This document shows positions 1 to 14,300 of a stretch of 14,300 nucleotides of DNA, piece by piece (position 1 is the first letter of the stretch; each line of letters starts with the position of its first letter). The DNA comes from a virus (taxonomy: Duplodnaviria > Heunggongvirae > Uroviricota > Caudoviricetes), in the IMG/VR virus record IMGVR_UViG_2579778919_000011, one strand, 5' to 3'. The position numbers and the translations under genes are program-made. The notes under the pieces are model-generated. The model was not told the origin of the DNA and ran no database searches. It was given only the letters and a program-made list of their open reading frames with translations.

Positions 1-618
1 TTAGTGTCCTTCGTGGCTGTAGTAAAAGACCGGTAATCCCAGCTTAAGGCGTAGCGCCAGTAAGCGGGCAAAAAAGCCGAATACCAGGGTGGAGATAATT
101 ACCACATCATGGTTAGAAACATAGTGTTGCAGCGCGATGTACAGCACGGCGGAGGCAAATGAGACACCGGCATACAACTCTTTCTGGAATACCAGTGGGA
201 TACGTTTACAGAACATATCGCGCAAAACGCCGCCAAACACGCCGGTGGTTACCGCCGCGACAACGGCAATAATTGGGCCGTGCCCCATATCCAGTGCAAC
301 CTGTGCGCCGATGATAGAAAAGACCACCAGTCCAAGCGCATCGAGCACCAGAAACACTTTGCGCAGGTAAGGCATTACAGGAGCAACGATAGTGGTGAGT
401 ACTGCGGCGGTAGCGACGATAATCACATATTCCGGGTGTTTGACCCAGCCGAGCGGATAGTGGCCCAGCAGAATATCGCGCACTGACCCTCCGCCAATTG
501 CGGTGGCGGTGGCAATAATAATTACGCCAAATGTATCCATGCGGCGTCGCCCGGCCGCCAGAGCCCCCGTCATGGCTTCGGCAGTAATGCCAACCAAATA
601 CAAAATGTGTAACAGCAT
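1..618 (-). CDS. yicG: UPF0126-family inner membrane protein YicG (205 aa, stop at 1-3)
   Basis: Reading ORF 1..672 from the ATG at 616-618 gives [18 protein letters not shown]..., a hydrophobic multi-span protein recognised as enterobacterial YicG. The 18 codons upstream in the ORF track are an in-frame extension without an ATG. Confidence 0.88.
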
Positions 619-909: not shown

Positions 910-1734
910 CTATTTCTTCTCTGTAATTTTTACACTGTTTTCCAACTGCTTGATGCTGACCTGCGGGGTCGGCAACTCCTCAGGCATGGTTCCGCCAAGT
1001 TCCTGAATGGTTTGCCTCACCTTGCTACCCACGTCAAAGTGTGTGGTATTAGCTTGCTGTTTTGAATTCACGCCATCCCGCTTGATTTTTTCTTCTGTTT
1101 GGGTAGCTCGAAAGAGATTAGCCGCCAGTTCTGTTGAACCCATATGATCCAGGATCTTCTGACTCTTTTTCAGCCCCTTCAGTTGGTGGATGGCTTTCTG
1201 ATCTAATCCACCATACAGCCCCTGGTAACCATGATTCTGAAATATGGCGAAATCAGTAGCTGTCGCTACCCCAGCTTGCTGTGCTGCCTCAACCAATTGT
1301 TTGTTATGTTCTTTCAACTCATTTCTCAGAAACAGACGCTTTTCGTCTTCACGAAGTTGCTTAAATGCTTCATCGTCAGCAAGCTCCTGCCGTCGGGTCT
1401 GGATAGCAAAATAAGTCTGCCCTGCCGCAATGACCGGTTTCGCAGGGTCGCCGTTTTGTACTACCAGGTAACAGGCATAGCGGGAGAGATGAACATCTTC
1501 AAGTTCTCGTTGAGCCCCTGAACCTAATACAACCATTTTGGTGGTTTCAACGAAATGGTCAGATGCAGCTTGATTGCTGGCTTCGCACGCTTGAGTCGCG
1601 CGGGCCAGTACCTTTTGAAAATTGCGCCAGTCCCGATAATCCAGTAACGGTGCCAATTCTCTAGCTGACCAAAATTCTTGCCCTTCAGTGCCATAATGCC
1701 GTATTTCTTCAAAAGGTTGATGATGTTCGTTCAT
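910..1734 (-). CDS. dinD: DNA-damage-inducible protein D (274 aa)
   Basis: ORF 910..1746; the ATG at 1732-1734 gives MNEHHQPFEEIRHYGTEGQEFWSAREL..., recognised as DinD. A GGAG lies about 9 nt upstream of this ATG. The ATG at 1744-1746 is an alternative start but would place the GGAG inside the coding sequence. Confidence 0.9.
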   Translation of the reverse strand: MNEHHQPFEEIRHYGTEGQEFWSARELAPLLDYRDWRNFQKVLARATQACEASNQAASDHFVETTKMVVLGSGAQRELEDVHLSRYACYLVVQNGDPAKPVIAAGQTYFAIQTRRQELADDEAFKQLREDEKRLFLRNELKEHNKQLVEAAQQAGVATATDFAIFQNHGYQGLYGGLDQKAIHQLKGLKKSQKILDHMGSTELAANLFRATQTEEKIKRDGVNSKQQANTTHFDVGSKVRQTIQELGGTMPEELPTPQVSIKQLENSVKITEKK

Positions 1735-1777
1735 TGCCCACTCCATGTGATATCGATTGCAAAGAAAGTAAATCTGT

Positions 1778-1797
1778 AACTGTATTTATATACAGTT
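1778..1797 (-). promoter_or_regulatory. LexA (SOS) operator of dinD
   Basis: Plus strand reads AACTGTATTTATATACAGTT, containing the CTGT-N8-ACAG LexA consensus with an AT-rich spacer. It sits about 45 bp upstream of the dinD start, and a TATAAA -10-like element lies inside the box on the minus strand. Confidence 0.85.
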
Positions 1798-1889
1798 GTG
1801 AGTATCTCACGTTCTCAGTGTGCGGGGCAAAAAAACATCGCAAAATCTGGAGCAGGCACGCAAAACAGAATTGAAGTTGCGGGGAAGAA

Positions 1890-1920
1890 AAATGCCGCTC
1901 TGTTTGAGTGGGCGGCATTT
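1890..1920 (-). terminator. Inverted repeat AAATGCCGC-N13-GCGGCATTT; possible minus-strand terminator or boundary structure
   Basis: Perfect 9-bp arms at 1890-1898 and 1912-1920. On the minus strand the stem is followed by TTTTTCTT. It lies between the dinD promoter and the island; function unproven. Confidence 0.3.
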
Positions 1921-2190
1921 GTGAAGGCTGAAAAGTAAGAATTGGCGTTACGAGTTATTCAATGTTCTGAATCTGTTTATTGAGTAGGTGACTTAAAGCC
2001 GCGTGGTTGCTGTGTTTTTGATAATGCCTTTTTTCAATGGGTACACCCTTGTGTACACGGCATTTTAGAGTGCTCGCCTTTTGCGGTTACTTTTTGCGCT
2101 ATGCCGTTTAAAGCCGTCAGTTACTTAGTCCATTCCTCACCGCTTCTTATTGTATGATGGCGCTATCCCACAATAAGGAATCAGCCAGCC

Positions 2191-2550
2191 ATGAGAATGA
2201 CCAGCCGCAAAAAAGAGGTACTCAGTTACTTTGAGCCGGATAGCCTCGACTGGGTTACTGGTGAGATTGGTGCGCCGCCGTTCGATGTGTCGGGCGTGGC
2301 CTACCTTCTTCATGGCATGGCGTCGTTCGATAAGCGCCACCAGCTCGAATCAACCCGGCGAACTCTTGAAAGCATGGTTGCCGGGGGGCTACTGGAACGT
2401 GTGACAGTGTATGAATCGCGTCAGGTAAAGCGTGGCGGTGAAACTAACGCAACGGTCGTGCGCTACGGTTTACCCGGTCAATGTGCCGTTGTGCGCGATA
2501 ATGGCGGCGCTGATAACTCGATATCTGGTGAATATGAGCGGGTTGGCTAA
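2191..2550 (+). CDS. Hypothetical protein (119 aa); only plus-strand gene in the island, at its left edge
   Basis: ATG at 2191 with AAGGA about 11 nt upstream; TAA at 2548-2550. Composition resembles neighbouring island genes. No family recognised. It competes with a minus-strand ORF at 2137..2340. Confidence 0.45.
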   Translation: MRMTSRKKEVLSYFEPDSLDWVTGEIGAPPFDVSGVAYLLHGMASFDKRHQLESTRRTLESMVAGGLLERVTVYESRQVKRGGETNATVVRYGLPGQCAVVRDNGGADNSISGEYERVG

Positions 2551-2570
2551 CGCGATGATTCGCAGGGCGG

Positions 2571-2756
2571 CTATCTTCGCGGCGCTGGCTTCTTCCACTG
2601 GTAGGCGGGTGATCTCATCATTTCGCGGAACCTGTCGCGCCGCGCTGTATCGGCCTTAATCATGCGCTCCATCTCCCGAACCTCTACCGGAGTAAGCTGG
2701 TGGCCTTCATGCTCCAGCTTTGCGGCTGTCAGTGCGGCTATCTGCTGCGGTGTCAT
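2571..2756 (-). CDS. Hypothetical small protein (61 aa)
   Basis: ATG at 2754-2756 with a weak AGGG upstream; charged, Arg-rich sequence. It is co-oriented with the upstream island operon. Short ORF, weak support. Confidence 0.35.
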   Translation of the reverse strand: MTPQQIAALTAAKLEHEGHQLTPVEVREMERMIKADTARRDRFREMMRSPAYQWKKPAPRR

Positions 2757-2863
2757 GGTTAGCCCTGTTGCGTGGTTTTGAATGGTTGCTACACTACCGG
2801 GAAACGGAAATGCGCAGGGGTCTTGCTCGTGTTCACAAACGCCCCTTTGCGGGCGTTTTTCTT

Positions 2864-3475
2864 CTACGGAATCAGGCTAATGCCTCTGGCTGCTTTCCCC
2901 GTCTTACGCTCAATCACGCCCGTGATTCTGTCCACTACCGGGCTGAATGCCTGCCAGTAAACACTCTCATAGCGAACCAGCACCCCTACTTTTTTGTTGA
3001 ATGTATCCCAGCGCATTCCCTTCGGCTTCGGGAAGGAACAGGGATTGTTAGCTAAATTACGTGTCTGTTCGGTGTTTCCCCAGACGGCATAACGCTGACG
3101 GCGCATTTTCATTCGCATCCGGCCTAACCTGTCCTCGCTCTGGCTGGTGTAGTGAAGTTTCCAGCACGCCCGGCAGCCAATATCTTTTTTGCCAATATAC
3201 AGCTTTGCAGCCCGTTTCATACAGTGGGGGCAAACGTACCATTCCCGCACGCCATACCCGGCCTGTGTGGTTGTGGTGCGAATCGCCCGCGTCACGCCGT
3301 TGATTGTCATGGCGTAGCTGTCGGCTTGCCGGAAGGTATACAACGTTCCGCTTTCGGTCTGGGTATAAAGCTGCGTACCCGGTTCAGCATCCGCCAGCCT
3401 GCTACGCATGTGCGAAAGGAATGGCAACCCTATGCGGGGCAGGTCGGTGGTATAGCTGCGCGTTCTGTCTCTCAC
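2864..3475 (-). CDS. Hypothetical protein with C4 zinc ribbon (203 aa), GTG start
   Basis: GTG at 3473-3475 is preceded by AGGAGG at 7-nt spacing. The protein contains CPHC-N15-CRAC (CxxC...CxxC). No family confidently recognised. Confidence 0.65.
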   Translation of the reverse strand: MRDRTRSYTTDLPRIGLPFLSHMRSRLADAEPGTQLYTQTESGTLYTFRQADSYAMTINGVTRAIRTTTTQAGYGVREWYVCPHCMKRAAKLYIGKKDIGCRACWKLHYTSQSEDRLGRMRMKMRRQRYAVWGNTEQTRNLANNPCSFPKPKGMRWDTFNKKVGVLVRYESVYWQAFSPVVDRITGVIERKTGKAARGISLIP

Positions 3476-3499
3476 TGGCTGGCCTCCTGCGAATTACTG

Positions 3500-3715
3500 C
3501 GCATTAACTGCGAACGGTGCGCAAATTGAATACGAAATAATATGCGTATTTTACTGTAAATTGCGCACTATTTTGCGCACTGCGAACCAATGGCGCGAGC
3601 CAGAATATTTTGGACTGCCTAAATCGAATATGGCTTCCAGCCCGCTACTGGCGCGGTTCTCTCTTCATATGGGCTTTGAGTCTGTCCAGTACAGTCCAGT
3701 ATTTCAACATCGGTG
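3500..3715. repeat. Intergenic module copy A (diverged direct repeat of 4110-4315)
   Basis: The 3580-3656 core aligns to 4173-4250 at roughly 78 percent identity by hand alignment (about 17 differences over 78 positions). Both copies carry several CTGCG/TGCGCA motifs and a CTGT-N5-ACAG dyad, here at 3682-3694. Confidence 0.6.
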
Positions 3716-3728
3716 ACTATACGGATTG

Positions 3729-4106
3729 CTAACATGCGCCGTTTTTTTTAACCCTTCGCAGATCCCGCCTTGCTTGCATTGAAACGGATCTCGCTAAACT
3801 CAGCTCAAGCCGTGCGATTCTGTCGGCATGTAGCCCCATGAGTCCGTTAATCAATGTCATCTCGCGCCATTCTTCTGTTCCCGGCGTCGGATTAGTCGCC
3901 AGTAATAGCCCGTATCTCTCAGCCATCATGAGGTTTCTTGCACGATTTCGCACCAGCGGAGAAAGCGCATCTTCTCCCTCAAACGGGAAGAATACCCGCC
4001 TACTGCGTTCGCCATGTTTGACGGCATTAGTATTGCCCAACGGTGCGCCTGCGCCTTTCCGCTTGCCACCCCATCCCGATCTTGATTGTTGGCTATTTTT
4101 TTTCAT
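3729..4106 (-). CDS. Terminase small subunit-like protein (125 aa); candidate packaging-redirection factor
   Basis: ATG at 4104-4106. The N-terminus GGKRKGAGAPLGNTNAVKHG matches the G-x-G-A-P-x-G-N-x-N-A-x-K-H-G motif I associate with one class of phage small terminase subunits. The size is typical of TerS. Assignment is by motif only. Confidence 0.55.
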   Translation of the reverse strand: MKKNSQQSRSGWGGKRKGAGAPLGNTNAVKHGERSRRVFFPFEGEDALSPLVRNRARNLMMAERYGLLLATNPTPGTEEWREMTLINGLMGLHADRIARLELSLARSVSMQARRDLRRVKKNGAC

Positions 4107-4109
4107 TTA

Positions 4110-4315
4110 ACGGCTCACTGTGCGCAAAAACCCTAACTGAATGCGCGGTTTTGCTGCGTACCTGACTGCGTACTGCGTACCAGTGGCGCGAACCTGAATA
4201 TTCTGGACGGTCTAAATCACGCTCTGGCTTCCAGCCCTCTGCTGGCGCGGGTTTAGCGCTACGAGGGTTTAAAATCTGTCAAGAACAGTCTAGAATTTTA
4301 GCCTGCGTTCGGTGC
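4110..4315. repeat. Intergenic module copy B (diverged direct repeat of 3500-3715)
   Basis: See copy A. The CTGT-N5-ACAG dyad is at 4276-4288. This copy lies immediately upstream of the TerS-like gene. Confidence 0.6.
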
Positions 4316-4320
4316 GAACC

Positions 4321-4671
4321 TCACGGCACAGACGAGTACCAGTAAAAGCCTGTTAGCCCGGCATCGCAGCGCTCACGATTAAGCACGCGTGGCGGTTGCT
4401 CTCTGGTCATCAACTCCAGCGAAGCATTACCTCCCTGCGTCTCCAGGCGGTATTGCCTGTCGGTAGTGGTGATGGCATCAGGCAATAACTTTATGGCGGC
4501 CTGGCTAAAGTCTCGCGGCGCGCCGTAAAATTGCGCATCAATAATATGAACCACATCGCCGTTAATCGTTGTCCGATAACGATCTGGCTGTATTGTAAAG
4601 CCCCCACAATGGATAGCAGATAGTGCCGGTGCAGAGGAGATCAGGCAGGCTGCCAGAATGTATTGCTTCAT
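4321..4671 (-). CDS. Small exported protein (116 aa) with N-terminal signal peptide
   Basis: ATG at 4669-4671 overlaps the upstream stop (ATGA). The N-terminus MKQYILAACLISSAPALSA is n-region plus hydrophobic core plus AxA-like cleavage site. No family recognised. Confidence 0.6.
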   Translation of the reverse strand: MKQYILAACLISSAPALSAIHCGGFTIQPDRYRTTINGDVVHIIDAQFYGAPRDFSQAAIKLLPDAITTTDRQYRLETQGGNASLELMTREQPPRVLNRERCDAGLTGFYWYSSVP

Positions 4672-5309
4672 TCTTCACCCACCAATTCATCCAGTTCAGC
4701 CAGCGTCAGAGGCTTTGGTACAGGCTTGTCGATATCGCCCATAATGCGCTGGAAGTTTCTGGCGGGCATATGGTTACGGTTCTCCAGTATTTTCGCCAGC
4801 GCGATAACATCCCACCATTTCAGGGTAATCAGCGCCTGAGCGCGGGAAAGGGATATTCGCTGTATATCGGCGTCCTCCCCACCAGCTACCCGGTATACCT
4901 CGGATAAATCACGAACATTTTTCATATCTGCTTTCCCGGACGTTTCCATCAGTGCGTCAATATCATCCTCCGTATAGCGTGATTGCGCGACGATACCAGC
5001 CAGAGAGCTAACCATAGCCCGGCATACTTGGTCTATCAGACGTAATCTGGCGTCATCGTTCGAGAGGGTGTAAGACTTAACCTCAGCCACATTCCGTGGA
5101 TAGTTGGCGTGCCATACCGCGACGGCTCCACACTCATCAACATCGCCGCCAAGGTAGGTTTTTGCCACTCGGTTATTACCCGATAATGCAATTTCTACCC
5201 CCTGTATGCCGAAAAACCATGCGGCTATCGCATGACCTGCTTCGTGTATTGCGAGATGTCTGGGCCAGCGATAGCTGCCTAACTCGATAATGGTGGGTTG
5301 TGTACTCAT
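4668..5309 (-). CDS. HEAGH zinc metallopeptidase-like protein (FtsH/M41-like motif, no AAA+ module)
   Basis: The ATG at 5307-5309 (MSTQPT...) is preceded by AGAGGGAAGA and sits 10 nt after the SSB stop. The ORF-track start at 5366 would overlap SSB by 47 nt. The protein contains LAIHEAGHAIAAW, resembling the FtsH zinc-binding HEAGHA motif. Confidence 0.7.
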   Translation of the reverse strand: MSTQPTIIELGSYRWPRHLAIHEAGHAIAAWFFGIQGVEIALSGNNRVAKTYLGGDVDECGAVAVWHANYPRNVAEVKSYTLSNDDARLRLIDQVCRAMVSSLAGIVAQSRYTEDDIDALMETSGKADMKNVRDLSEVYRVAGGEDADIQRISLSRAQALITLKWWDVIALAKILENRNHMPARNFQRIMGDIDKPVPKPLTLAELDELVGEE

Positions 5310-5319
5310 ATCTTCCCTC

Positions 5320-5781
5320 TCAGAATGGATCTTCATCATCAAACGGCGGGCGCTGGTCAAAATCATCAGGGGTGTTATATAGCTCCCATCCCGGCGCGGG
5401 TTGCGTGGTATGGCCCCTGCTGGCTTCGCTTGCTTTGACTGACTCGGCCCGCTTCCCGCCGGGGCGTACCGTTCTGGCGCTGATCACGCTGTCGGCTACT
5501 ACCTGATACCCCTGCTGTGTACCGCCATCCTTGCCCGTCCACTGATTGACCTGCATCGCTCCGGCAACACTGACTAAATCGCCTTTAACGTGTCCTGCCA
5601 GTGCGTCGGCCTGTTTGCCGAATGCCACCACGCCCAGCCAGAAAGTAACCTCTCCGCCCTCTGCTGCATGGCAGGGCAGTGCCACCGCTAACCGTCCCAT
5701 TGCCATGCTTGTACCGCTTGCTGTGGTGCGGGTCTGGGGATCTGCCACCAGCCGCCCGTATGCTGATATCTGTGCTGTCAT
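5320..5781 (-). CDS. ssb: Single-stranded DNA-binding protein (153 aa)
   Basis: OB-fold-like pattern TFWLGVVAFGKQADALAGHVKGD...W...YQVV, and an acidic C-terminal tail ...PPFDDEDPF resembling the SSB DDDIPF tail. Its start overlaps the upstream stop (TAATG). Confidence 0.85.
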   Translation of the reverse strand: MTAQISAYGRLVADPQTRTTASGTSMAMGRLAVALPCHAAEGGEVTFWLGVVAFGKQADALAGHVKGDLVSVAGAMQVNQWTGKDGGTQQGYQVVADSVISARTVRPGGKRAESVKASEASRGHTTQPAPGWELYNTPDDFDQRPPFDDEDPF

Positions 5782-5966
5782 TAAGCGCCCTCCATTCTTG
5801 ATAACGTGTTGTCAATATTCCCGGCGGCTCGTTTCAGGTAGTCCATGCTGTCATTTAGCCGGGATAATTCGCCAGCCAGTAACAAGGCCGCCGCCTCCTG
5901 CGCGGTGAACCCCTGCGCTTCAATCTCTCTAATAACTTCGATCTGCTTTTTATGATGTTCGTTCAT
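5781..5966 (-). CDS. Hypothetical small protein (61 aa), first gene of the SSB operon
   Basis: The ATG at 5964-5966 (MNEHHKKQIEVIR...) has AAGGG 7 nt upstream. The ORF-track start at 5990 has a G-run directly abutting the ATG, which is poor spacing. Confidence 0.5.
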   Translation of the reverse strand: MNEHHKKQIEVIREIEAQGFTAQEAAALLLAGELSRLNDSMDYLKRAAGNIDNTLSRMEGA

Positions 5967-6019
5967 TTTTTCGCCCTTTAGCTGAATCATACCCCCCCCT
6001 GTAAATCTTTTTTGGGGTG

Positions 6020-6275
6020 TAATATCCCTACCAAACCCTACTAATCGATGAAACCCAGATATGGCGCGGCTTTCAGGCTAGTAGGGAATTGTTTTTCTTA
6101 CCCTACATAACCCTACTTATCCCTACTAAATCACTTCAACGGCATTTTACTGCCTGTTTTATTTGGTAGGGATATGTAGGGATAAGTAGGGATAAGTATA
6201 TATATCCCTACCAGTCTACAAACCCCGTCATTACTGGCCTTAAATGACTTTGTAGGGATAGGTAGGGATAAATCA
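6020..6275. repeat. Iteron array; putative island origin of replication
   Basis: Five direct GTAGGGATA copies at 6166, 6176, 6186, 6252 and 6262, the first three and last two at exact 10-bp spacing. Three inverted TATCCCTAC copies at 6023, 6118 and 6203, plus partial copies (CCCTAC at 6101 and 6111, GTAGGGAA at 6081). An AT-rich GTATATATAT lies at 6196-6205. The array is immediately 3' of the primase-helicase gene. Confidence 0.75.
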
Positions 6276-6283
6276 GGGGTAAA

Positions 6284-8728
6284 CTATTCTTCGCCCCCTT
6301 CGGCGGTGCTGCTGCCATATGCTCGCGGTATAAACTCCTCAGCCATCTCGTTATAGCCCACGTTGGTTTGCGCTCTGCCGTTAATGCTTCGCGTCAGGTA
6401 GCTGGCTCGGTACTCTTTTGCTGCTGATTTTATGGCGCGTGAAAACTTATTGACGGAAAGCGGTTTACCCAGCCCGTGATACTCCATAAACGCCAGGTAA
6501 AGATGATAAAGATACGCCCTCGGCTCTGGCTGGCCTGCCCATGTACCTCCGCCCATCATCATGCCTTTGGGTTCGTTCATGAAAAAAAGTGCCGCACACA
6601 TATCGATAACCGGATCTGTGCCGCGTTTAACGTCTAGCGCCTCCTGAGAATCGCGCTGCTCAAGTAACAGTGCCTTTGCTTTGTTCTGGTCGGAAAAGGT
6701 GGTTAGCAGGTGGCGGATAATCACCGGGATTTCTCGCCTGATTTTTGCGGTTAAATCCGGGTCTTTGTCTGCGTCTGATACCGGGTTATTAAACGGGAAT
6801 ATCACGCGGCGGCGGGCAATGCCCCCGTTTCGCTCCGTGAATGTCATCGGCTCGTTATTGGTTGCCATAACAACGGCATTTATCACGGTTGTGAACTGCT
6901 TTTCATATTTCCCATCAATCTCTACCGGATCGCCGCCCGTAATGGCTTTAATCCCCGCACCCTCTCCAACGTAGCGGGTCTGGTCAGGCATAATAATCAG
7001 GCTTTTCCCTACGAACTGCGCCCGTCCCCGTGCGGTGTCCAGCGTCATCATGCTACCGCTGGCGGTGTTGTGTTCACCTGCCAGCGTGGTTGCTATGCTG
7101 CTGAATACGGATTTCCCACTGCCGCCCTCGCCAGTTATCTCAATGAATAGCTGCCAGTCGTGACGCTTCGCCAGCACCATAAACAAGGCTGCTTTGATAC
7201 GCTCGGCCTTATGATGGTCGCCAGCCGTTGCATGATTCAGCCAACGGGTAAAATTGGGGGCGCTGGTGGAAATATTCTCCCCCGGCGCTGGCGGGGTGTA
7301 GGTGATCCCATTGTGGTTCATCAGCCAGTTACCCGGCGAATGGGCGGAAAACGTCTGCGTAGCGAGGTCATAAACGCCGTTATCAAAACCAATCAGATCC
7401 CCGCTCCGCTCACCAATTACCGGTATTTGCAGCTTCATGGTTGCGACAACCGATTTAATCCCTTTTTCGGTGTAGTGGGCTTCGTGCTCGTCGAAAATTG
7501 CCACCATAACCCTTTCTAATTCGCTGTCTGGTAGCTTCACCCATACGCCAGATTCGTAGCAGTAAACAGCGCCACTATCAGGGTTGACCGCCAACATATC
7601 CCAGCGAGATGAAAGCAACCGCGCTTTCTGGCTGGCTGCCATTTGTGCAATATCTCCGACTTCGGCTTTACGGCGGGATTTACCGCCCACAATGGCCTGT
7701 AGTTGTGGTTTCACGGCTTCCCCCTGAATCTGGTACATCGAATCGTTAAACGCAGCCGTAGCGACTTCCAGCCCGTTTTGCTGGCGGTAGTCGTCCCAGT
7801 CGGCTTTGTAGTCTGTCGGCGGCAGCGCCACCCAGCCAGCCACGGATAAGGCGGCTTTCTCTGCGGCCTCCCTGCCTGTATTGGCTTCTCCGTTTTGGTG
7901 GTGGTCGTTGTCTGCGGCGATAATAATTTGCGCCTTCGGGTGTTTCCGGCGCATTACTCCGGCAACGGGTAGCAGGTTGCCCGCGTCAATTGCTGCCACT
8001 GCCAGCGCGTCCGGGCGCATCAGGTGAACTGACAGAGCGGTAGCCAGCCCCTCGGCAATCACGACGCTTTGAGGCCGTTCCAGCGCGTTTACGGCGTAAT
8101 ATGCCCCGCGCTTTGCTGAACCTGTCAGAAGTCGCTTTTCTCCCTGCGGGGTGATGGTCTGCGCGGCTGTGACTGCGCCGGATTCATCCACCAGCTCCAG
8201 CAATAACGAACCATCGGGCATTAGCGGGTAATTGAACCCGGTCAGCCCTTTTGATTGCAGGTAATCAGATTCGCCCTGTGTGACGTTCTGGCGCATTCCG
8301 GCATACAGACGGGTAAACGTTGCCCTTCGCTGCTCTGCGTCCTCTGCTGCCTGTTGCTGGCGCTCCTGCTCACGCTGCTGGCGGTCAGCCTCCAGTTGCT
8401 CCCTTCTCTGGCTCGCTGCCGTCTGGTCGGTTTGTGCTGCCCGGTAATCAATACCCAGCACATCAGCGGCAAGGTGCGCCGCCTCCGTGGTGTCGCAGTT
8501 GTTAACCCGCTTGATTAAATCCAGCCCGTCGCCCGCGCCGCACTGATTGCAGATAAAGCTGCCGCGCCCGTTGTCGTCGAACCGGAAGCGATCCGTACCG
8601 CCACATGCAGGGCAGGGGGCATGGCGGCGTGATGAATCAGGCACGTCGATAGACAGGCCAGCCAGCACATAAGGCCAGTTACCAGCGGCGGCGGTGGTCA
8701 CTTCGCGGATAAAGTCGATATTACGCAT
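6284..8728 (-). CDS. Primase-helicase (P4 alpha-like / Pri-Rep), 814 aa
   Basis: N-terminal zinc ribbon CPACGG...CNQCG; Toprim-like motifs VVIAEGLATALS and IIIAADNDHH; Walker A GEGGSGKS in the C-terminal NTPase domain. GAGGGAG lies 7 nt upstream of the ATG at 8726-8728. Confidence 0.9.
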   Translation of the reverse strand: MRNIDFIREVTTAAAGNWPYVLAGLSIDVPDSSRRHAPCPACGGTDRFRFDDNGRGSFICNQCGAGDGLDLIKRVNNCDTTEAAHLAADVLGIDYRAAQTDQTAASQRREQLEADRQQREQERQQQAAEDAEQRRATFTRLYAGMRQNVTQGESDYLQSKGLTGFNYPLMPDGSLLLELVDESGAVTAAQTITPQGEKRLLTGSAKRGAYYAVNALERPQSVVIAEGLATALSVHLMRPDALAVAAIDAGNLLPVAGVMRRKHPKAQIIIAADNDHHQNGEANTGREAAEKAALSVAGWVALPPTDYKADWDDYRQQNGLEVATAAFNDSMYQIQGEAVKPQLQAIVGGKSRRKAEVGDIAQMAASQKARLLSSRWDMLAVNPDSGAVYCYESGVWVKLPDSELERVMVAIFDEHEAHYTEKGIKSVVATMKLQIPVIGERSGDLIGFDNGVYDLATQTFSAHSPGNWLMNHNGITYTPPAPGENISTSAPNFTRWLNHATAGDHHKAERIKAALFMVLAKRHDWQLFIEITGEGGSGKSVFSSIATTLAGEHNTASGSMMTLDTARGRAQFVGKSLIIMPDQTRYVGEGAGIKAITGGDPVEIDGKYEKQFTTVINAVVMATNNEPMTFTERNGGIARRRVIFPFNNPVSDADKDPDLTAKIRREIPVIIRHLLTTFSDQNKAKALLLEQRDSQEALDVKRGTDPVIDMCAALFFMNEPKGMMMGGGTWAGQPEPRAYLYHLYLAFMEYHGLGKPLSVNKFSRAIKSAAKEYRASYLTRSINGRAQTNVGYNEMAEEFIPRAYGSSTAEGGEE

Positions 8729-8740
8729 TGTGTCGCTCCC

Positions 8741-9331
8741 TCAGTGCGCCGCTGGCATTTCAGGCCAGCCGTTTTCATTCAGATCAGCAATGAAGTGATC
8801 GTGTAGCTCTGCCAGCGTTTCACGCCCGAACGGGGTTAACTCTCCGCGCTCCGCATCCAGCATGGCGCGGTAGAACACAATGGCGTTTTCCGTACCCTGT
8901 TCGACGCCGTATCGCTCAATCATTGCGCCCTCGATGTTGTTCGCCATCGCCAGCCGTTCAGCAAACGGGTAAATCACCATGCCCGCATTACCATTGGAGT
9001 AAATCGCCACCTGCGATGTTGTGCCGTCAGCCTCCGTGACGGAGGTTGTGCCGTTTTCGCGCTTCATTTCAGAAACGAACTTCGCAGCAATCAGCCAGCG
9101 CCACATAGTGACGTTATGCTGCGCGGTAAAGTCGAACCAGCCACGCGCCCCGCCATCAGCAACGGCAAAATGAATGGCGTAGCCGATATCGGGCGTATCG
9201 TCGTACTCTCCCGCATCCAGACGGCTTACAGCGCTCTCATAGGTGATAATGGCTACATGCTCATACATCCCGGCATCGTTGCGGGTCATGATATTGACGC
9301 CGTGCGGCGTTGCCTCTGCGTGATAGCTCAT
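8741..9331 (-). CDS. Hypothetical protein (196 aa), co-operonic with primase
   Basis: ATG at 9329-9331 overlaps the upstream stop (ATGA); the stop is 12 nt before the primase start. Acidic protein, no family recognised. Confidence 0.65.
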   Translation of the reverse strand: MSYHAEATPHGVNIMTRNDAGMYEHVAIITYESAVSRLDAGEYDDTPDIGYAIHFAVADGGARGWFDFTAQHNVTMWRWLIAAKFVSEMKRENGTTSVTEADGTTSQVAIYSNGNAGMVIYPFAERLAMANNIEGAMIERYGVEQGTENAIVFYRAMLDAERGELTPFGRETLAELHDHFIADLNENGWPEMPAAH

Positions 9332-9549
9332 GACTTGCCCTCCCGATATTCACGCATCACATAGTCAGCTAGCTTGCTTTCGGCTTCTTCCATTGCCTCC
9401 GGGACGCCATGCAGCAAAGTGAGGATTGAACCGATAAGACGCGGAAGGTCGGGGCTAGTGTCTTTGGTGGTGCTCTCCAGCCACATGGATAAAACAGCCT
9501 GTGCCTGTTCAATCTGACAGGTGGCATCAATCAGTTGTAACTGGCTCAT
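9328..9549 (-). CDS. Hypothetical small protein (73 aa)
   Basis: ATG at 9547-9549 overlaps the stop of the Icd-like ORF (ATGA). Translationally coupled position within the operon. Confidence 0.55.
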   Translation of the reverse strand: MSQLQLIDATCQIEQAQAVLSMWLESTTKDTSPDLPRLIGSILTLLHGVPEAMEEAESKLADYVMREYREGKS

Positions 9550-9734
9550 GCTGCCACCTCCAGACGGATACGGCCTGCAAAGAAACAGACGTGATCCCGC
9601 GCCAGCGTGCGGCGAGCTTCGCGCTCAGTTTCAGCAGCAATGTGATGGATTTTGGCGGTAATTGTCGGCATATCGCGGCGAACTGCTGCGATAATCCAGA
9701 TAAATTGCGGTTTTTGGGTAGGGGTAGTAGCCAT
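9546..9734 (-). CDS. Icd-like small protein (62 aa; host cell division inhibitor-like)
   Basis: The ATG at 9732-9734 is preceded by AGGAGG at 7-nt spacing. The sequence MATTPTQKPQFIWIIAAVRR...EREARRTLARDHVCFFAGRIRLE fits my recollection of Icd-like proteins in P4-type islands. The 249-aa ORF in the track is an upstream read-through of this gene. Confidence 0.6.
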   Translation of the reverse strand: MATTPTQKPQFIWIIAAVRRDMPTITAKIHHIAAETEREARRTLARDHVCFFAGRIRLEVAA

Positions 9735-9761
9735 TATGGCAGCCTCCTTTGTGTTTAAGGA

Positions 9762-9800
9762 GTCACCGCCTGATGTGCAAATATCATGATTGGCGGTGAC
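9762..9800 (-). promoter_or_regulatory. Perfect 9-bp inverted repeat GTCACCGCC-N21-GGCGGTGAC upstream of the Icd-like gene
   Basis: Arms at 9762-9770 and 9792-9800. The spacer contains the palindrome ATCATGAT. It lies 28 nt upstream of the Icd-like start and could be an operator or an RNA stem-loop in the 5' leader. Confidence 0.4.
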
Positions 9801-9923
9801 GTTAGCAGGGTTTGCACTACCGGACACAAAGGAAACCGGCCTACGCGAACGTAGCCCCACTAACGCCACCATTGATACAGTACGGGTAAGTCCGCTGATT
9901 TGATGTGCGTAGTGAATGGACAC

Positions 9924-9946
9924 AAAAAAAGACGCTTTCGGCGTCT
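9924..9946 (-). terminator. Rho-independent terminator (minus strand)
   Basis: Minus strand reads A-GACGC-CGAAA-GCGTC-TTTTTTT: a GC-rich 5-6 bp stem, 5-nt loop and a T7 tract. It is in the non-coding region between the 60-aa ORF and the Icd-like gene. Confidence 0.5.
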
Positions 9947-10005
9947 GTGTCGCCCTTAGTGTGTTCGGGGTGCAAATCCCGGTTGCTGATTTTGCAGCAA
10001 CGCTT
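9924..10005 (-). ncRNA. Candidate small structured RNA ending at the terminator (possible C4/CI-like immunity RNA)
   Basis: Between a weak TATAGT-like -10 (around 10010-10016 on the minus strand) and the terminator, the minus strand can form three hairpins: GTTGCTG-N6-CAGCAAC (9982-10001), CGGG-N8-CCCG (about 9966-9981) and the terminator stem. The predicted length of about 80 nt and the position upstream of an icd-like gene match the P1 c4 / P4 CI arrangement. Inference only. Confidence 0.25.
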
Positions 10006-10233
10006 GGACTATAACAGCTTTTCTCTGCTAGGTGGTCATACCAGATAAAACCGTAACCCTTTAAGAGTTTTTCCTGTGCACGGCTCACCATCTTTTTGTT
10101 GAGGGTAAGCGCCTCGCGTACTGGTAACGGAACTCCGGGCGCTGCGGTATCAATATCAGGTTTTGTAAGGTTGCAGATGTCAACTTTTGACAACATGCCA
10201 GCCAGATTAAAGGCTTCTTTCTGGGCGGCAGGT

Positions 10234-10416
10234 TCATTCAGTATCACGGCGCACCTCCACGAACTCATTAACGAATCTCTCCAAAGGCTGAACACATGGC
10301 GACTGATAGCCCTCGCGGTAAAAGGTCACTCGGTTATGCTCGACGCGCTGTACGGTCACTACAGCCCCGTGCGAATCCTTGTAACGGCTTCCCGGCATCG
10401 GATTGTGGTTACGCAT
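10234..10416 (-). CDS. Hypothetical small protein (60 aa)
   Basis: The ATG at 10414-10416 has GGAGG at 6-nt spacing, embedded in the 3' end of the antirepressor gene (8-nt overlap). Sequence MRNHNPMPGSRYKDSHGAVVTVQRVEHNRVTFYREGY.... Confidence 0.6.
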   Translation of the reverse strand: MRNHNPMPGSRYKDSHGAVVTVQRVEHNRVTFYREGYQSPCVQPLERFVNEFVEVRRDTE

Positions 10417-11242
10417 GGTTTACCTCCAGACGTTTAGCGAGCCAGCGTTGCGACAGGCGGGTGAGTTCTCCTTTGCGCTGCTCATATTCCATGCCCATAT
10501 CAATTAACGTGATATTGGTGCTTTCGAGATAGGCGAGGTGTTCAAGCTGTGCTGCGTTCATGCTGTCCCGTGGTTCGCCAGTAATGCCATTTGCCTGCGC
10601 CCACTGCTTCGCCGTCATGCCACCCAGCACGATACGGGCGATCATGTTGCTCTCGTTGCTGTAGTGGCGCTGCTGCGTCGTTTTACCCAGCTCGGCACGG
10701 GCCATATTCAGCGCATCGCACATCGGCTTAAAGTTGTTTGCGGCACTGATACGGGCTTTTAGCTGGCGACGATAGCGGGCGGCGATTTCAGGCACGCTAC
10801 GCTGTAATTCTTCCTCGCACTGGATGAAATAACGGCGGATAGCGCGGCCCTGTTCGGTGCGTTCGATCATTGCCAGTTCTTTCGCCATTCCGACACTTAA
10901 CAGATAGTCTTTGCCGGGTCTGCCAGACTGTTTAATCTTGCTGTAAGCCGTGCCATTCGGGCTTTTCCCCAGATTTGGGGAAATTGTTTTATGGACTGAG
11001 TAATCGTGCCCAATGGTGAAGTCATATTCAGAGATGCGATCAGTGATCCATGTAGAGAAGTCTTTTCCCACGCCCAACGCTTTGTGTAACGCTTTTGCGC
11101 TAACAATATTGGTTTCACGCCCACCGATATGACCAGGAATAACCGGGACAATTGCGGCAAATTCATTACCGTTAATTGTGCCCTGATAGGCGTTCAGATG
11201 AGGGGCGGCCTCAGAAATTAATCTGCTTTTTTCGATGTTCAT
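10409..11242 (-). CDS. Phage antirepressor, AntA-domain protein (277 aa)
   Basis: The N-terminal region AKALHKALGVGKDFSTWITDRISEYDFTIGHDY...LSVGMAKELAMIERTEQGRAIRRYFIQCEE matches the AntA/AntB antirepressor domain signature (DFSTWI, MAKELAM, RRYFI). GGAG lies 9 nt upstream of the ATG at 11240-11242. Confidence 0.75.
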   Translation of the reverse strand: MNIEKSRLISEAAPHLNAYQGTINGNEFAAIVPVIPGHIGGRETNIVSAKALHKALGVGKDFSTWITDRISEYDFTIGHDYSVHKTISPNLGKSPNGTAYSKIKQSGRPGKDYLLSVGMAKELAMIERTEQGRAIRRYFIQCEEELQRSVPEIAARYRRQLKARISAANNFKPMCDALNMARAELGKTTQQRHYSNESNMIARIVLGGMTAKQWAQANGITGEPRDSMNAAQLEHLAYLESTNITLIDMGMEYEQRKGELTRLSQRWLAKRLEVNHA

Positions 11243-11254
11243 TTTCAGTCTCCG

Positions 11255-11689
11255 TTAGGCGGCGGTGAGATTGTCCGGGTATAGGTTGAGAATGTCGGCA
11301 ATTTCAGGCTGAGAAAGTCCCTGATAGCCGCCAGCGTCGGCGTTATGGTTCACAAGCCGAATAACTTTTAGAACGTCACCGCGCCCGGTAAAGCGATAGC
11401 GTAAATGTGACCCTATCCCGTCGGGGTTCTTTTCGTCTATACGCTCAAGCTGAATATCAAGCCTGCGCTCTAACTCGCTGGCGTAGTTCCTTCCAGATGA
11501 AAGGCGGCAATATCGCAGAATGTCGTTTTCTGTCCATCCCTCTACGCCAGTACGCAGCATATAGACGCGGGCGCGGTGTTTCTTTGGGGTTCGCTTAGGT
11601 ACTTGTACCGGGCTGGTGGTCGGCGTAATATCAGACGTGCGAATATCTGAGTTAGCCGCCTGCTGTACGGGGCGGTTTTTCTTTTTCAT
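11255..11689 (-). CDS. Hypothetical protein (144 aa), basic N-terminus
   Basis: ATG at 11687-11689 overlaps the alpA stop (TAATG). Lys/Arg/Pro-rich N-terminal region; no family recognised. Confidence 0.65.
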   Translation of the reverse strand: MKKKNRPVQQAANSDIRTSDITPTTSPVQVPKRTPKKHRARVYMLRTGVEGWTENDILRYCRLSSGRNYASELERRLDIQLERIDEKNPDGIGSHLRYRFTGRGDVLKVIRLVNHNADAGGYQGLSQPEIADILNLYPDNLTAA

Positions 11690-11892
11690 TACGCCACCTT
11701 TCCCCGGCGCTCCGCCAGCCAGTTGTGAATATCAGCCGCATCAAAGGCGGTAATCTTCTCGCCCAGCTTTACCGGACGTGGTAGTGAACCGTTTCTTACT
11801 TTACGGTCGATGGTGGATACACTAACGCCCAGCAATTCAGCCAGGCGAAAGCGTCTGATATAGCCTTTTGTAGGGATAGTGTCGATGTTCAT
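11689..11892 (-). CDS. alpA: AlpA-family phage transcriptional regulator (67 aa)
   Basis: RFRLAELLGVSVSTIDRKVRNGSLPRPVKLGEKITAFDAADIHNWL matches the AlpA/excisionase-like helix-turn-helix pattern. It sits in the typical position near the integrase. Confidence 0.85.
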   Translation of the reverse strand: MNIDTIPTKGYIRRFRLAELLGVSVSTIDRKVRNGSLPRPVKLGEKITAFDAADIHNWLAERRGKVA

Positions 11893-11896
11893 GATT

Positions 11897-11935
11897 CCCG
11901 TAACCTCTTAGCGATAGTTGTTGCTTCGTTACGGG
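11897..11935 (-). promoter_or_regulatory. Inverted repeat CCCGTAAC-N23-GTTACGGG immediately upstream of the alpA start
   Basis: 8-bp arms at 11897-11904 and 11928-11935. On the minus strand the structure encloses the alpA ribosome-binding region (GAGG), so it is a candidate operator or RBS-sequestering hairpin. Confidence 0.35.
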
Positions 11936-11986
11936 TATTTAATGGCAAATTCAGTAGTCAATGTTCCAAATTTAAAATGGTCAGTT

Positions 11987-12940
11987 TCAAATTTTGAAGT
12001 ATTTCTCAATGGTTGCAGAGGAAGGCATACCCATGCCGGCGAGCTTGCCTTCTCTCTGCTTATCCTCCAGAAATTTTATTAGAATTTCATAGCGTTTATT
12101 GGGATTTGCGGTTATTACATCTTCACCCAGCTCAGGTACGCATCGGATTAGCATTTCAATAAACTCACCAACCTTATTGCTGTTCACTGTTGGCGCTATT
12201 TGCTTTTGCTCGCTGGGTTCTGGCGGGATGGTAACGCCTCCGTTAATCATGCTTTTCATTGGCTCGCCTGTGTCTATTGCGTCTTTTAGTTTTAAGATGG
12301 TATCTCTGGCAATAAATAGATCGGAGATTGTCAAAGTCTCATTAAGCGCAGGTTTTCGGCTCTCACTTAACTGAAACCCTATGCTTTCGGCTAGTTGTCT
12401 GTTTAGCGTCGGTAGCCAGCTCTGATTAAAATATCTATCGCTAATTATATGACACGAAAGGCCAGTCTTCTCGCGGAAAGTATCCCATCCGAACGGCCTG
12501 AAAATTGTCGTATCTATCACCCTTGCCCTCTCAGAATAAAGGAGGCTTTCTATTTCACCATGTCCCAGACACCATAGCCCATGCGCCAATCCCCTAAATA
12601 AAATAAACCCACCATCTGTTTTGTATACGTCATGCTCGGTGAGAAAGGAATTAAAATGAGATACATAGTTGCTATCACGAAAAAGAAATGATGAGTTTAC
12701 TTTGTGTTCGTTATAAAACTCAATTGGATCTTGAATGTCTTGGCCGCCTACAAAAACCAGCGCAGAACAGAAATACCTCATCATTACACATAAGGGGATC
12801 GCACCAATAACACCATAGTGAAGTAAATCATCTGTATCACATTGTAAAATACTAGCTGCCCTGTCGAGCTTAAAGTATTCCATAGGTGGGATTTTAATAC
12901 TGCTGTGGGCTTCTTTTTTGGTCATCGCGTCACCTTTCAC
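11987..12940 (-). CDS. AT-rich cargo protein of unknown function (317 aa; alternative ATG start at 12925)
   Basis: Long ORF between int and alpA. Hand-counted GC of three 60-nt blocks is about 28-43 percent, against about 70 percent in one block of the primase gene. AAGG lies upstream of the GTG at 12938-12940, and the ATG at 12923-12925 also has an SD-like AAAGGTGA. No catalytic motif recognised. Confidence 0.7.
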   Translation of the reverse strand: MKGDAMTKKEAHSSIKIPPMEYFKLDRAASILQCDTDDLLHYGVIGAIPLCVMMRYFCSALVFVGGQDIQDPIEFYNEHKVNSSFLFRDSNYVSHFNSFLTEHDVYKTDGGFILFRGLAHGLWCLGHGEIESLLYSERARVIDTTIFRPFGWDTFREKTGLSCHIISDRYFNQSWLPTLNRQLAESIGFQLSESRKPALNETLTISDLFIARDTILKLKDAIDTGEPMKSMINGGVTIPPEPSEQKQIAPTVNSNKVGEFIEMLIRCVPELGEDVITANPNKRYEILIKFLEDKQREGKLAGMGMPSSATIEKYFKI

Positions 12941-13040
12941 GCTGTGCCTTAAAGAGTGATTGAGCCAGGCGGTAAGGCTTCCCGCTTTTCGCCCCGTCGG
13001 GCTAGGCTCAATCTGTCCTCTGATTCTTTACATATCTTGG

Positions 13041-14300
13041 TTACTTCGCCTTTCTCAGCGGTGTAACGTTGTATTCTTCGCCGCGTTCCAGTGCCACCAG
13101 CAAGCCCGCCCACTGTGTTAACGCAGCCCGGCGTTCATCAAAGTATTGGTGGCGGTTATAGATACCCTCCACGCCTTTAATTTTGTGGTTAAGGCATCTT
13201 TCTGCGACTACCGGATCAACGCCCAGCGCGGCTAAATGGGTGCGGGCCGTGCGCCGGAAGTCGTGAATGGTGAAGTTCGGCACGTCCGGCATTTCAGCGC
13301 GAACCTTCGCCAGCGCAACGGGCAGGGTGCTTTCCTGAATATGGGGGATCATGCGGTTTTGCATCTTTCTGGCTGGCAGTACCCATGCGCTGTTGCATGA
13401 GAACGTTTTAAGCTCTCTCAGCCATTCGACGGCTGGCGGTGCTAATGGGATGTCTATAGCGTCGCCGTTTTTGCTGCGTTCCTCTGGCAAGCGCCATACG
13501 GCTTTATCAAAATCGAACTCCTCCCAGCGGGCGGCGCATAACTCCATTTTGCGGACGCATAACGCTAACAGTAATTTGAACGTGATTTCGTTCTGGCGAC
13601 TGAATCCCTTAGCCGTGCGCATGGCTTTGAATAGCTGGATTAACTCATCGCGGGTTAACCAGCGGTCACGGGCAACTTCTTTCCCTCCGGCGTCTGCCAC
13701 CTCAAAGGCTGAACATGGGTTAATCTCCAGCGCGTGCCGTTTGATTCCGTAGTCGAATATGCGGCGCGTCCATCTCAGCACGTCCGTTGCTATGGTCGGC
13801 GCTCCACGGTCAACAATACCTTTCAGCATGTCATCGATATGGCGCGGTTTCACGTCCTCTACCTTCATGCTGCCAATGCAGGGGTTTATATCTTTGTCGA
13901 TACGGCGGCGGAGTATATCGGGGTGCTTCCAGCGCGGGAGGATCTGACGCTCAAAGTATTCAGCGGCAAGCTCTGAAACGCGCATGGCGTTCTTCTCTGC
14001 TTCCATCTTCGCCAGTGCTTCGGCTTTCCGTTCCTGCTTCTCTCCCGCGACGTCATAACCCAGCGCAACACGCGCCGATAGCTCTTTGGCTGTCTCTCTG
14101 GCCTTTGATAGTGATAGCTCGGCATATGAGCCAATCAGCATGGCGCGGGGTTTCCCTGCGAATTTATAGCGGAATCGCCAGACGGGGGTCTGGTAGTTTT
14201 CGCGGTATGAAAGATAAAGCCCGTTACCGTCAGAGCGTCCCTCGAATCGCTCCCCGGCCTTTATCCATGCGCGGATCTGCATGTCTGTGAGTTTTGGCAT
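13041..14300 (-). CDS. int: Tyrosine recombinase / integrase, P4-family (419 aa)
   Basis: The N-terminus MPKLTDMQIRAWIKAGERF...DGNGLYL resembles the arm-binding domain of P4-type integrases. C-terminal catalytic residues are present: HDFRRTARTH (HxxR) and GIYNRHQY (catalytic Tyr). The ATG is the last three bases of the window, so the promoter is outside it. Confidence 0.9.
   Translation of the reverse strand: MPKLTDMQIRAWIKAGERFEGRSDGNGLYLSYRENYQTPVWRFRYKFAGKPRAMLIGSYAELSLSKARETAKELSARVALGYDVAGEKQERKAEALAKMEAEKNAMRVSELAAEYFERQILPRWKHPDILRRRIDKDINPCIGSMKVEDVKPRHIDDMLKGIVDRGAPTIATDVLRWTRRIFDYGIKRHALEINPCSAFEVADAGGKEVARDRWLTRDELIQLFKAMRTAKGFSRQNEITFKLLLALCVRKMELCAARWEEFDFDKAVWRLPEERSKNGDAIDIPLAPPAVEWLRELKTFSCNSAWVLPARKMQNRMIPHIQESTLPVALAKVRAEMPDVPNFTIHDFRRTARTHLAALGVDPVVAERCLNHKIKGVEGIYNRHQYFDERRAALTQWAGLLVALERGEEYNVTPLRKAK

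Follow-up and report, generated by a model that had tools for sequence, protein, structure and literature searches.

The stretch of DNA considered here (14,300 nt, IMG/VR virus record IMGVR_UViG_2579778919_000011; 'the window' in what follows) carries an island lodged in a bacterial chromosome between the genes yicC and dinD. The left 1.95 kb of the window is ordinary E. coli chromosome; from 1976 rightward nearly all genes lie on the minus strand, and the last of them encodes a 419-aa tyrosine integrase whose start codon is the window's final triplet (Table 1). An earlier note on this DNA, made from the letters alone, had placed the insertion beside dinD and left its attachment site undecided between a non-canonical sequence and a tRNA gene past the right end. 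A protein gene, yicC, provides the attachment site at its 3′ end, and nothing speaks against this placement; dinD is merely the next gene. The element itself, integrative and 12,536 bp long, is very probably of the Gram-negative phage-inducible chromosomal island (PICI) type, and its P4-family integrase recombines with the last 21 bp of yicC.

Sequence beyond the window was read from contig ATJZ01000046.1 of assembly GCA_000482045.1 (L086), which is 100% identical over all 14,300 bases and extends past both ends. From the integrase leftward, the integration genes are followed by a Bro and immunity-RNA zone, then by the replication genes and, in the terminal zone, by small genes without assignment, all in one direction over ~12.5 kb; by this plan and this size the island matches the published organization of Gram-negative PICIs (PMC6092414; bioRxiv 10.1101/2022.07.18.500453). 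The description of a satellite-like island with a P4-family integrase holds; the integrase has three domains and is 27% identical to P4 Int. The island is a mosaic: its best match among complete genomes covers 88% at 94% identity, and its exact combination of modules is absent from that set.

Table 1. Features of the window and the evidence for each, in order of position
Feature	Position	Strand	Evidence and remarks
yicG	1-618	-	chromosomal flank
dinD	910-1746	-	Pfam Bro-N; named dinD in related genomes; flank, outside the island; reads away from the island
LexA box of dinD, CTGTATTTATATACAG	1780-1795	.	pattern search; same as K-12; intact
native yicC intrinsic terminator	1890-1920	-	hairpin of -12.4 kcal/mol, z -3.27, then U-run; same place in the empty K-12 site
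attL	1955-1975	.	TTATTCAATGTTCTGAATCTG, the reverse complement of ...CAGATTCAGAACATTGAATAA; displaced native yicC end, last six codons and stop
probable arm-type integrase-binding repeats, far arm	2037-2058	.	GGGTACACCCTTGTGTACAC; 22-bp module repeated by int (L086 4951-4972)
island-internal dyad	2146-2177	+	CTTATTGT...ACAATAAG; overlaps ribosome-binding site of ORF 2191-2550; -11.2 kcal/mol, z -1.7; conserved in S43
119-aa hypothetical protein	2191-2550	+	sole rightward gene; far-end marker in relatives; no family match
203-aa hypothetical protein	2864-3475	-	no family match
intergenic module, copy 2	3530-3706	-	repeat search; upstream of ORF 2864-3475
125-aa protein	3729-4106	-	GNTNAVKHG motif; faint small-terminase-like match
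intergenic module, copy 1	4130-4300	-	repeat search; upstream of ORF 3729-4106
116-aa hypothetical protein	4321-4671	-	no family match
213-aa hypothetical protein	4668-5309	-	no family match
SSB, single-stranded-DNA-binding protein	5320-5781	-	Pfam SSB, 1.1e-14
putative replication origin	6020-6275	.	~12 GTAGGGATA iterons, 10-bp phasing, both orientations
primase-helicase, P4 alpha type, 814 aa	6284-8728	-	Pfam Zn_Ribbon_Prim, Toprim_3, D5_N, DUF5906, Pox_D5
196-aa protein, phrog_1515	8741-9331	-	PHROGs
Ash/Icd-like ORF	9546-10295	-	Pfam Phage_ASH; similar to P4 cI-region ORF, E 2.6e-12
C4-type antisense immunity RNA	9789-9876	-	Rfam RF01695, 80.8 bits, E 6.6e-15
isrK-like RNA and a1/b1 targets of C4 RNA	9925-10014	-	Rfam RF01394, 73 bits; RF03163, 49.3 bits
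DUF4222 protein	10234-10416	-	Pfam
AntA/AntB-type antirepressor (Bro-zone gene)	10409-11242	-	Pfam AntA, 1.9e-21
144-aa hypothetical protein	11255-11689	-	no family match
AlpA-family regulator/excisionase	11689-11892	-	Pfam Phage_AlpA, HTH_17; 33% identical to P4 Vis/ORF88
312-aa gene, low GC, in the variable int-alpA slot	11987-12925	-	GC about 43%
int-alpA RNA motif	12946-13012	-	Rfam RF02996, 64.9 bits, E 7.4e-12
tyrosine integrase, P4 family, 419 aa	13041-14300	-	Arm-DNA-bind_3, Phage_int_M, Phage_integrase

Junctions and attachment site

The left junction is fixed by comparison with the empty locus of E. coli K-12, as the earlier note had proposed. K-12 aligns to window positions 1702-1975 at 97.5% identity, and the homology stops exactly at 1975; past this point K-12 runs on into yicC, while the window runs into island DNA. 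The full 220-bp dinD-yicC spacer of K-12 is kept on the chromosomal side. The junction falls within the interval 1800-2190 where it had been expected; the start then assigned to the island, 1750, takes in ~205 bp of ordinary chromosome, and the island does not directly abut the dinD promoter, its edge lying 180 bp from the LexA box, which is identical to that of K-12 and, as it had seemed, intact.

At the other end, L086 places the yicC stop codon 190 bp before the integrase start codon, and attR lies 191-211 bp beyond the end of the window. The same comparison yields the direct repeat that flanks the element: 21 bp, identical at 18 of 21 positions, at window 1955-1975 and at L086 4821-4841, a spacing of 12,536 bp. 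That is, the intact yicC end CAGATTCAGAATATCGAGTAA recurs as CAGATTCAGAACATTGAATAA on the far side of the island. Both copies share an unbroken 11-bp block, TTCTGAATCTG in window orientation (1965-1975 at attL), and every mismatch between them falls to the same side of this block, as expected if the crossover took place inside it and the island contributed the 10 bp of the functional yicC nearest the stop. Together attL and attR rebuild attB except for one polymorphic base. The predicted attP would read …GCTAATAGCTTACTCGATA-TTCTGAATCTG-TTTATTGAGTAGG…, and the predicted attB …GAGTTATTCAATG-TTCTGAATCTG-CTCGCGCATC…. The 21-bp repeat CAGATTCAGAAYATYGARTAA can be used to set the limits of E. coli islands between yicC and dinD. 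A side observation concerns E. coli S43, whose attL copy (TTATTCGATGTTGAATCTG, at about 6950-6975 of L001) has lost two bases of the identity block; the loss may have locked that island in place.

The substituted gene end is synonymous: in occupied genomes YicC has 287 aa and the C-terminus QIQNIE*, as in K-12. The island also brings an intrinsic terminator 40 bases past the new yicC stop (AAGCCCGC-loop-GCGGGCUU, then a U-run). With gene end and terminator both restored by the element, insertion is neutral for yicC; the SOS control of dinD is untouched. The native yicC terminator is now cut off from yicC by the island and stands between the leftward genes of the island and the dinD promoter, where it would insulate dinD from island read-through. 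A simple promoter and terminator scan of 1700-2300 misses this terminator, which has a 13-nt loop; RNA folding recovers it.

Two inverted repeats near the junction, at 1890-1920 and 2146-2177, had been pointed out before as possible landmarks. Both are real, and neither is an att element: the first is the chromosomal terminator just described, the second an island-internal dyad that is probably an operator or a translational hairpin. Better candidates for integrase contacts are the GTGTACAC/GGGTACAC words (GTGTAC-type, with a GTAC core), which recur on both arms and are probable arm-type integrase sites; most relatives hold three to five GTAC-core words in the spacer between yicC and int.

These observations fit the following series of events. 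The P4-family tyrosine integrase would join the island attP with the last 21 bp of yicC, by a crossover inside the 11-bp identity block. The incoming island brings synonymous final yicC codons and a stop, so that YicC stays full-length after insertion, and behind them an intrinsic terminator; the original yicC end, its terminator and the whole dinD promoter with the LexA box now lie across the island from yicC, without any change. By analogy with published family biology, AlpA would then serve as regulator and excisionase; the primase-helicase would replicate the excised circle from the iteron origin; the C4-type RNA would give immunity-like control of the AntA/Ash region; and spread would rely on a helper phage.

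Distribution of islands at the yicC 3′ end

Occupation of this site is common. A 701-bp probe made of int, spacer and yicC end is covered to at least 80% in 459 of 5,426 complete E. coli genomes (~8.5%); the remaining genomes match it only from the yicC stop codon onward. Among the matches listed, the identical integrase has yicC 190 bp upstream in all six of six contigs, and at least 21 contigs carry this integrase, the modules being reshuffled among them. An O157:H7 genome carries a different element at the same site, 13 kb long and organized as int-HTH-AntA-Icd-primase-SSB, for which the supplied end reads QNVE*.

The association reaches well beyond E. coli. In a species-level survey of contigs from one genome per species, yicC ends 167-242 bp upstream of int at 46 loci whose integrases are 40-96% identical to the one considered here; these loci span Enterobacterales, Aeromonadales, Psychrosphaera, Neisseriales and Rhodocyclales, hence Gamma- and Betaproteobacteria. 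The exceptions among close integrase relatives are tandem islands, one attP-like arrangement, or sister integrases at the 3′ ends of other genes (der, for example). Across the yicC loci the last 12 YicC residues, IEQMREQIQN[IVL]E, are invariant, even where overall YicC identity falls to 41-46% (Betaproteobacteria).

The sister integrases, 62-65% identical, deserve separate mention. One lies at the 3′ end of der/engA in Klebsiella michiganensis (L049), and in Citrobacter sp. and Leclercia (L046 and L047) the gene whose 3′ end is occupied is a neighbour of yeaG/prkA; at all three loci the island carries a terminator of the same kind and GTAC-type arm repeats. Comparison of these neighbourhoods shows target switching within the integrase clade, between the conserved ends of protein genes.

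P4 itself integrates at a tRNA-Leu gene. An ordinary P4-type integration into a tRNA or transfer-messenger RNA (tmRNA) gene, with the target just past the right end of the window, was therefore the natural alternative; more distant integrase relatives (26-32% identity) do adjoin tRNA-Leu, Met, Glu, Thr, Ser or tmRNA genes, at nine of 14 loci. The right flank given by L086 rules it out for this island and leaves it a vanishingly small probability. There yicC, not a tRNA gene, stands 190 bp from the integrase start, and ARAGORN detects no tRNA or tmRNA on L086, which continues for 5 kb to the right of the window; the direct repeat that flanks the island, moreover, is yicC coding sequence. Nor do ARAGORN and an Rfam scan find any tRNA or tmRNA in the 14,300-nt window, so that the remark that no tRNA is in view was right, and ARAGORN finds none at eight related loci with flanks of up to 20 kb. 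The neighbour in the 459 E. coli genomes and at the 46 species-level loci is likewise yicC. The rightward extension suggested earlier has thus been made, and of the two possibilities then offered the non-canonical site is right and a tRNA past the right end is refuted; no tRNA or tmRNA gene with a matching repeat, the finding that would have spoken for ordinary integration, lies immediately right of the integrase, where the matching repeat is the end of yicC.

A P4-family integrase without a nearby tRNA is then no anomaly, because islands land repeatedly at the yicC 3′ end, a point of some value for annotation. A non-tRNA target is probably used because this gene end is as conserved as a tRNA; it would serve as a tRNA-like target and so give the integrase clade its broad host range. 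With the last 12 yicC codons conserved in two proteobacterial classes, the case makes clear how tRNA targets can be abandoned by some P4-family integrases.

The site, though not a tRNA gene, is neither unusual nor new, as its presence in ~8.5% of complete E. coli genomes and in the literature makes plain. Two reference PICIs have been mapped to yicC, EcCIRM13514 of E. coli O145 RM13514 and CfCIP10159 of Citrobacter freundii (bioRxiv 10.1101/2022.07.18.500453). Other elements published as integrating at the yicC 3′ end are MGIVflInd1, MGIVchUSA1, MGIVchMoz6 and MGIVmi1 (PMC5704250), the SGI1-like elements IEEcoMOD1 and IESenUSA1, one of them in E. coli (PMC8409611), and islands in Shewanella and Pseudoalteromonas (PMC8978831); a 'yicC_dinD' integration site is on record in O157:H7 clade 8 (PMC9997748).

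Element class and competing readings

Gram-negative PICIs are recognized by a unidirectional int/alpA/pri-rep arrangement, a size of 12-15 kb, a lack of structural and lysis genes and an att site unused by prophages (PMC6092414). Here int, alpA, primase and SSB are all on the minus strand in one unidirectional array, and 12,536 bp separate the att repeats. The iterons form an AT-rich region (GC 0.45) directly downstream of the primase stop at 6284, the place of the origin in such islands. Pfam, PHROGs and NCBIfam give no capsid, portal, tail, holin or endolysin family in the major open reading frames (ORFs), eight or more of which are without assignment; adding PADLOC, no structural, lysis, conjugation or known defence family is found in the island ORFs, and the PADLOC defence models have no match in ten unassigned ones. 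As to prophage use of the site, 50,697 phage records contain no integrase more than 34% identical, and the O157 occupant is a 13-kb PICI-like element, part of the 459 occupied genomes having been surveyed for their occupants.

The closest described relatives are the two yicC PICIs, which have the same target gene end and the same int-alpA-Bro-primase-SSB plan. The attR of CfCIP10159 (…cagattcagaatATCGAGTAAGCtatcag…aagcccgc…gcgggcttttttgttatcatgggctatcat…) hardly differs from the junction of the present island, in the island-borne terminator and the sequence after it as well, and the EcCIRM13514 pattern is matched by the O157 element at yicC. The identity block differs: it is CAGATTCAGAA here, as against ATCGAGTAAGC and GAGCAGATTCAA in the two references, and represents a third, overlapping register; 'drift' of the identity block among yicC PICIs was already noted by Mageeney et al. 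(bioRxiv 10.1101/2022.07.18.500453). The module content of the present island differs from theirs in being mosaic. With EcCICFT073, the model Gram-negative PICI (Fillol-Salom et al. 2018, 2019), it has in common the unidirectional int, alpA and pri-rep, the origin downstream of the primase, the 12-15 kb size, the lack of structural and lysis genes and an att site unused by prophages; EcCICFT073 uses another att site, and neither an RppA homologue nor a λ-type cos is detectable in the yicC island.

The satellite lifestyle, with helper dependence, packaging and transfer, is a prediction, and several results are to be set against it. λ cos has five matches at two mismatches in the island, none convincing, and six of 200 shuffles reach as many; P2/P4 cos has no match within three mismatches. 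NCBIfam and PDB sequence searches of the unassigned ORFs give no Rpp homologue and no significant match to any other known PICI protein. The sole signal resembling a small terminase is a faint 20-bit motif in ORF 3729-4106 (NCBIfam TerS_not_xtmA, E 4.5e-4, far under the cut-off of 120), and a sequence search finds no PDB relative of this 125-aa protein, which is possibly a candidate for packaging redirection. No helper phage was identified. Compared with the 50,697 phage records, the island DNA shares only 49 bp, in antA, with Stx phages, and the left 2.3 kb has no match there even in distant mode. About half of the island ORFs, finally, have no recognizable function.

Kinship with P4 raises the question of a strict P4-like satellite, one with a P2-type helper and with sid, psu and delta for capsid remodelling and for switching on helper late genes; int, alpA, alpha, epsilon, sid, delta and psu are the core genes of that class. 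The backbone is indeed held in common: Int (27%, E 1.6e-21), the alpha primase (37% over full length, E 6e-140), a Vis/AlpA-like protein (E 7.8e-8), a C4/CI-type immunity RNA with its cI-region ORF, and arm-type repeats around attP. Apart from the target, tRNA-Leu in P4 and yicC here, the two differ in that sid, delta, psu, epsilon, gop, beta, cII and a P2-type cos are not found in the island: by tblastn of P4 proteins against its whole length, Sid, Delta, Psu and Epsilon give a best E of 0.7 or worse, Gop, Beta and cII give nothing better than E 0.014 (Beta), and Pfam has no match for any of these proteins. A P4-like helper relationship in the strict sense is accordingly very improbable.

A different kind of mobility is suggested by the company kept at the site. 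MGIVflInd1, MGIVchUSA1, MGIVchMoz6, MGIVmi1, IEEcoMOD1 and IESenUSA1 all sit at the yicC 3′ end, so the present island might be moved by conjugation, as a mobilizable genomic island or an SGI1-like integrative mobilizable element, with its transfer functions hidden among the several ORFs without assigned function. What these elements of Vibrio, Salmonella and E. coli, together with GISpuPO1 and GI21 of Shewanella, have in common with it is the target and a tyrosine integrase; they measure 21-37 kb and carry conjugative-mobilization functions, none of which was found here. Family scans detect no relaxase, MobI, TraG/TraN, MpsA or other transfer family in any ORF (the sequence would still allow an oriT mimic), and size, int-alpA-Bro-primase-SSB order and C4 RNA all fit the Gram-negative PICI plan, the closest att sequence being that of a reference PICI. 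Conjugative mobilization is thus improbable, if a shade less so than a strict P4 lifestyle.

The island might also be an immobile, decaying remnant that keeps its integrase and no longer spreads. Neither a packaging determinant nor a helper was identified, and the S43 attL copy, 2 bp short in its identity block, tells us that decay does happen at this site. In the window's island, int, alpA, primase, iterons and both att copies are intact, and the occurrence of one integrase on 21 or more contigs with reshuffled modules indicates recent mobility and recombination. A dead remnant is on balance unlikely, and a Gram-negative PICI remains the preferred reading. As site, gene-end restoration and element class are all already described, the island is another member of a known group, and current understanding is unchanged by it.

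Variable modules and the neighbouring dinD gene

Some components of the island vary among relatives or recur in unexpected places. The slot between int and alpA holds genes of 216, 293 or 312 aa in relatives; the 312-aa family present here comprises 57 clusters, unannotated, and all named sources are Enterobacterales. An AF2 model of the 312-aa protein suggests an N-terminal winged helix of MerR/Xis type followed by alpha/beta domains, and no defence or other function could be assigned to it. The Ash/Icd-like ORF overlaps the C4, a1/b1 and isrK-like RNAs on the same strand; as its Pfam Ash match partly covers the RNA genes, the protein annotation may be partly spurious.

The 196-aa phrog_1515 protein recurs in identical form (gene 10001-10591 of the Logan contigs L083 and L087) in int-primase elements that lie in the middle of phage structural clusters, between portal, Mu-F-like and major capsid genes. 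In this they resemble what Mageeney et al. call 'helper-embedded satellites', and they have modules in common with the yicC island.

The 125-aa gene is flanked by two copies, 75% identical, of a module of ~130-170 nt, each upstream of an ORF. Within the module are a CTGT-N5-ACAG dyad, a GC hairpin (CCAGC…GCTGG), the near-palindrome CCWGAATATTCWGG and TACGCAG/GTGCGCA words that recur. The related islands L001, L006 and L008 likewise have two copies of the module, and the phage records none. It could be a duplicated operator/promoter or a packaging site.

The gene dinD has affinities of its own with mobile elements. The Streptococcus 'Javan' satellite phages carry, near one end of the element, full-length homologues of DinD that are 53-55% identical to it across 96% of its length, and other homologues occur in many phages of Mycobacterium and Gordonia. 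In two assemblies other than E. coli (GCA_900635495.1 and GCA_000248015.2; L084 and L085) with related yicC islands, a gene of the Mur-ligase family replaces dinD on the far side, from which it follows that dinD is not a universal neighbour of the yicC att site. One might suppose that dinD is a domesticated mobile-element gene, left by an earlier occupant of this satellite landing site. Its membership in the Bro-N family, the satellite-phage homologues and the Mur-ligase replacement support this idea; against it, a search for a relic of the yicC-end att repeat between dinD and yicG gives a best match of 12 of 21, the median of shuffled sequences. The idea is doubtful; if it were true, the Bro/antirepressor zone of adjacent satellites might be a partner for a Bro-N protein under SOS control.

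The N-terminal (Bro-N) region of dinD is dimorphic across E. coli. The 213 bp at 1489-1701 give no megablast alignment with K-12, and the window's version of the dinD 5′ region, a common second allele that E. coli B and O157:H7 also have, is present in 2,767 of the 5,426 complete genomes of the species.

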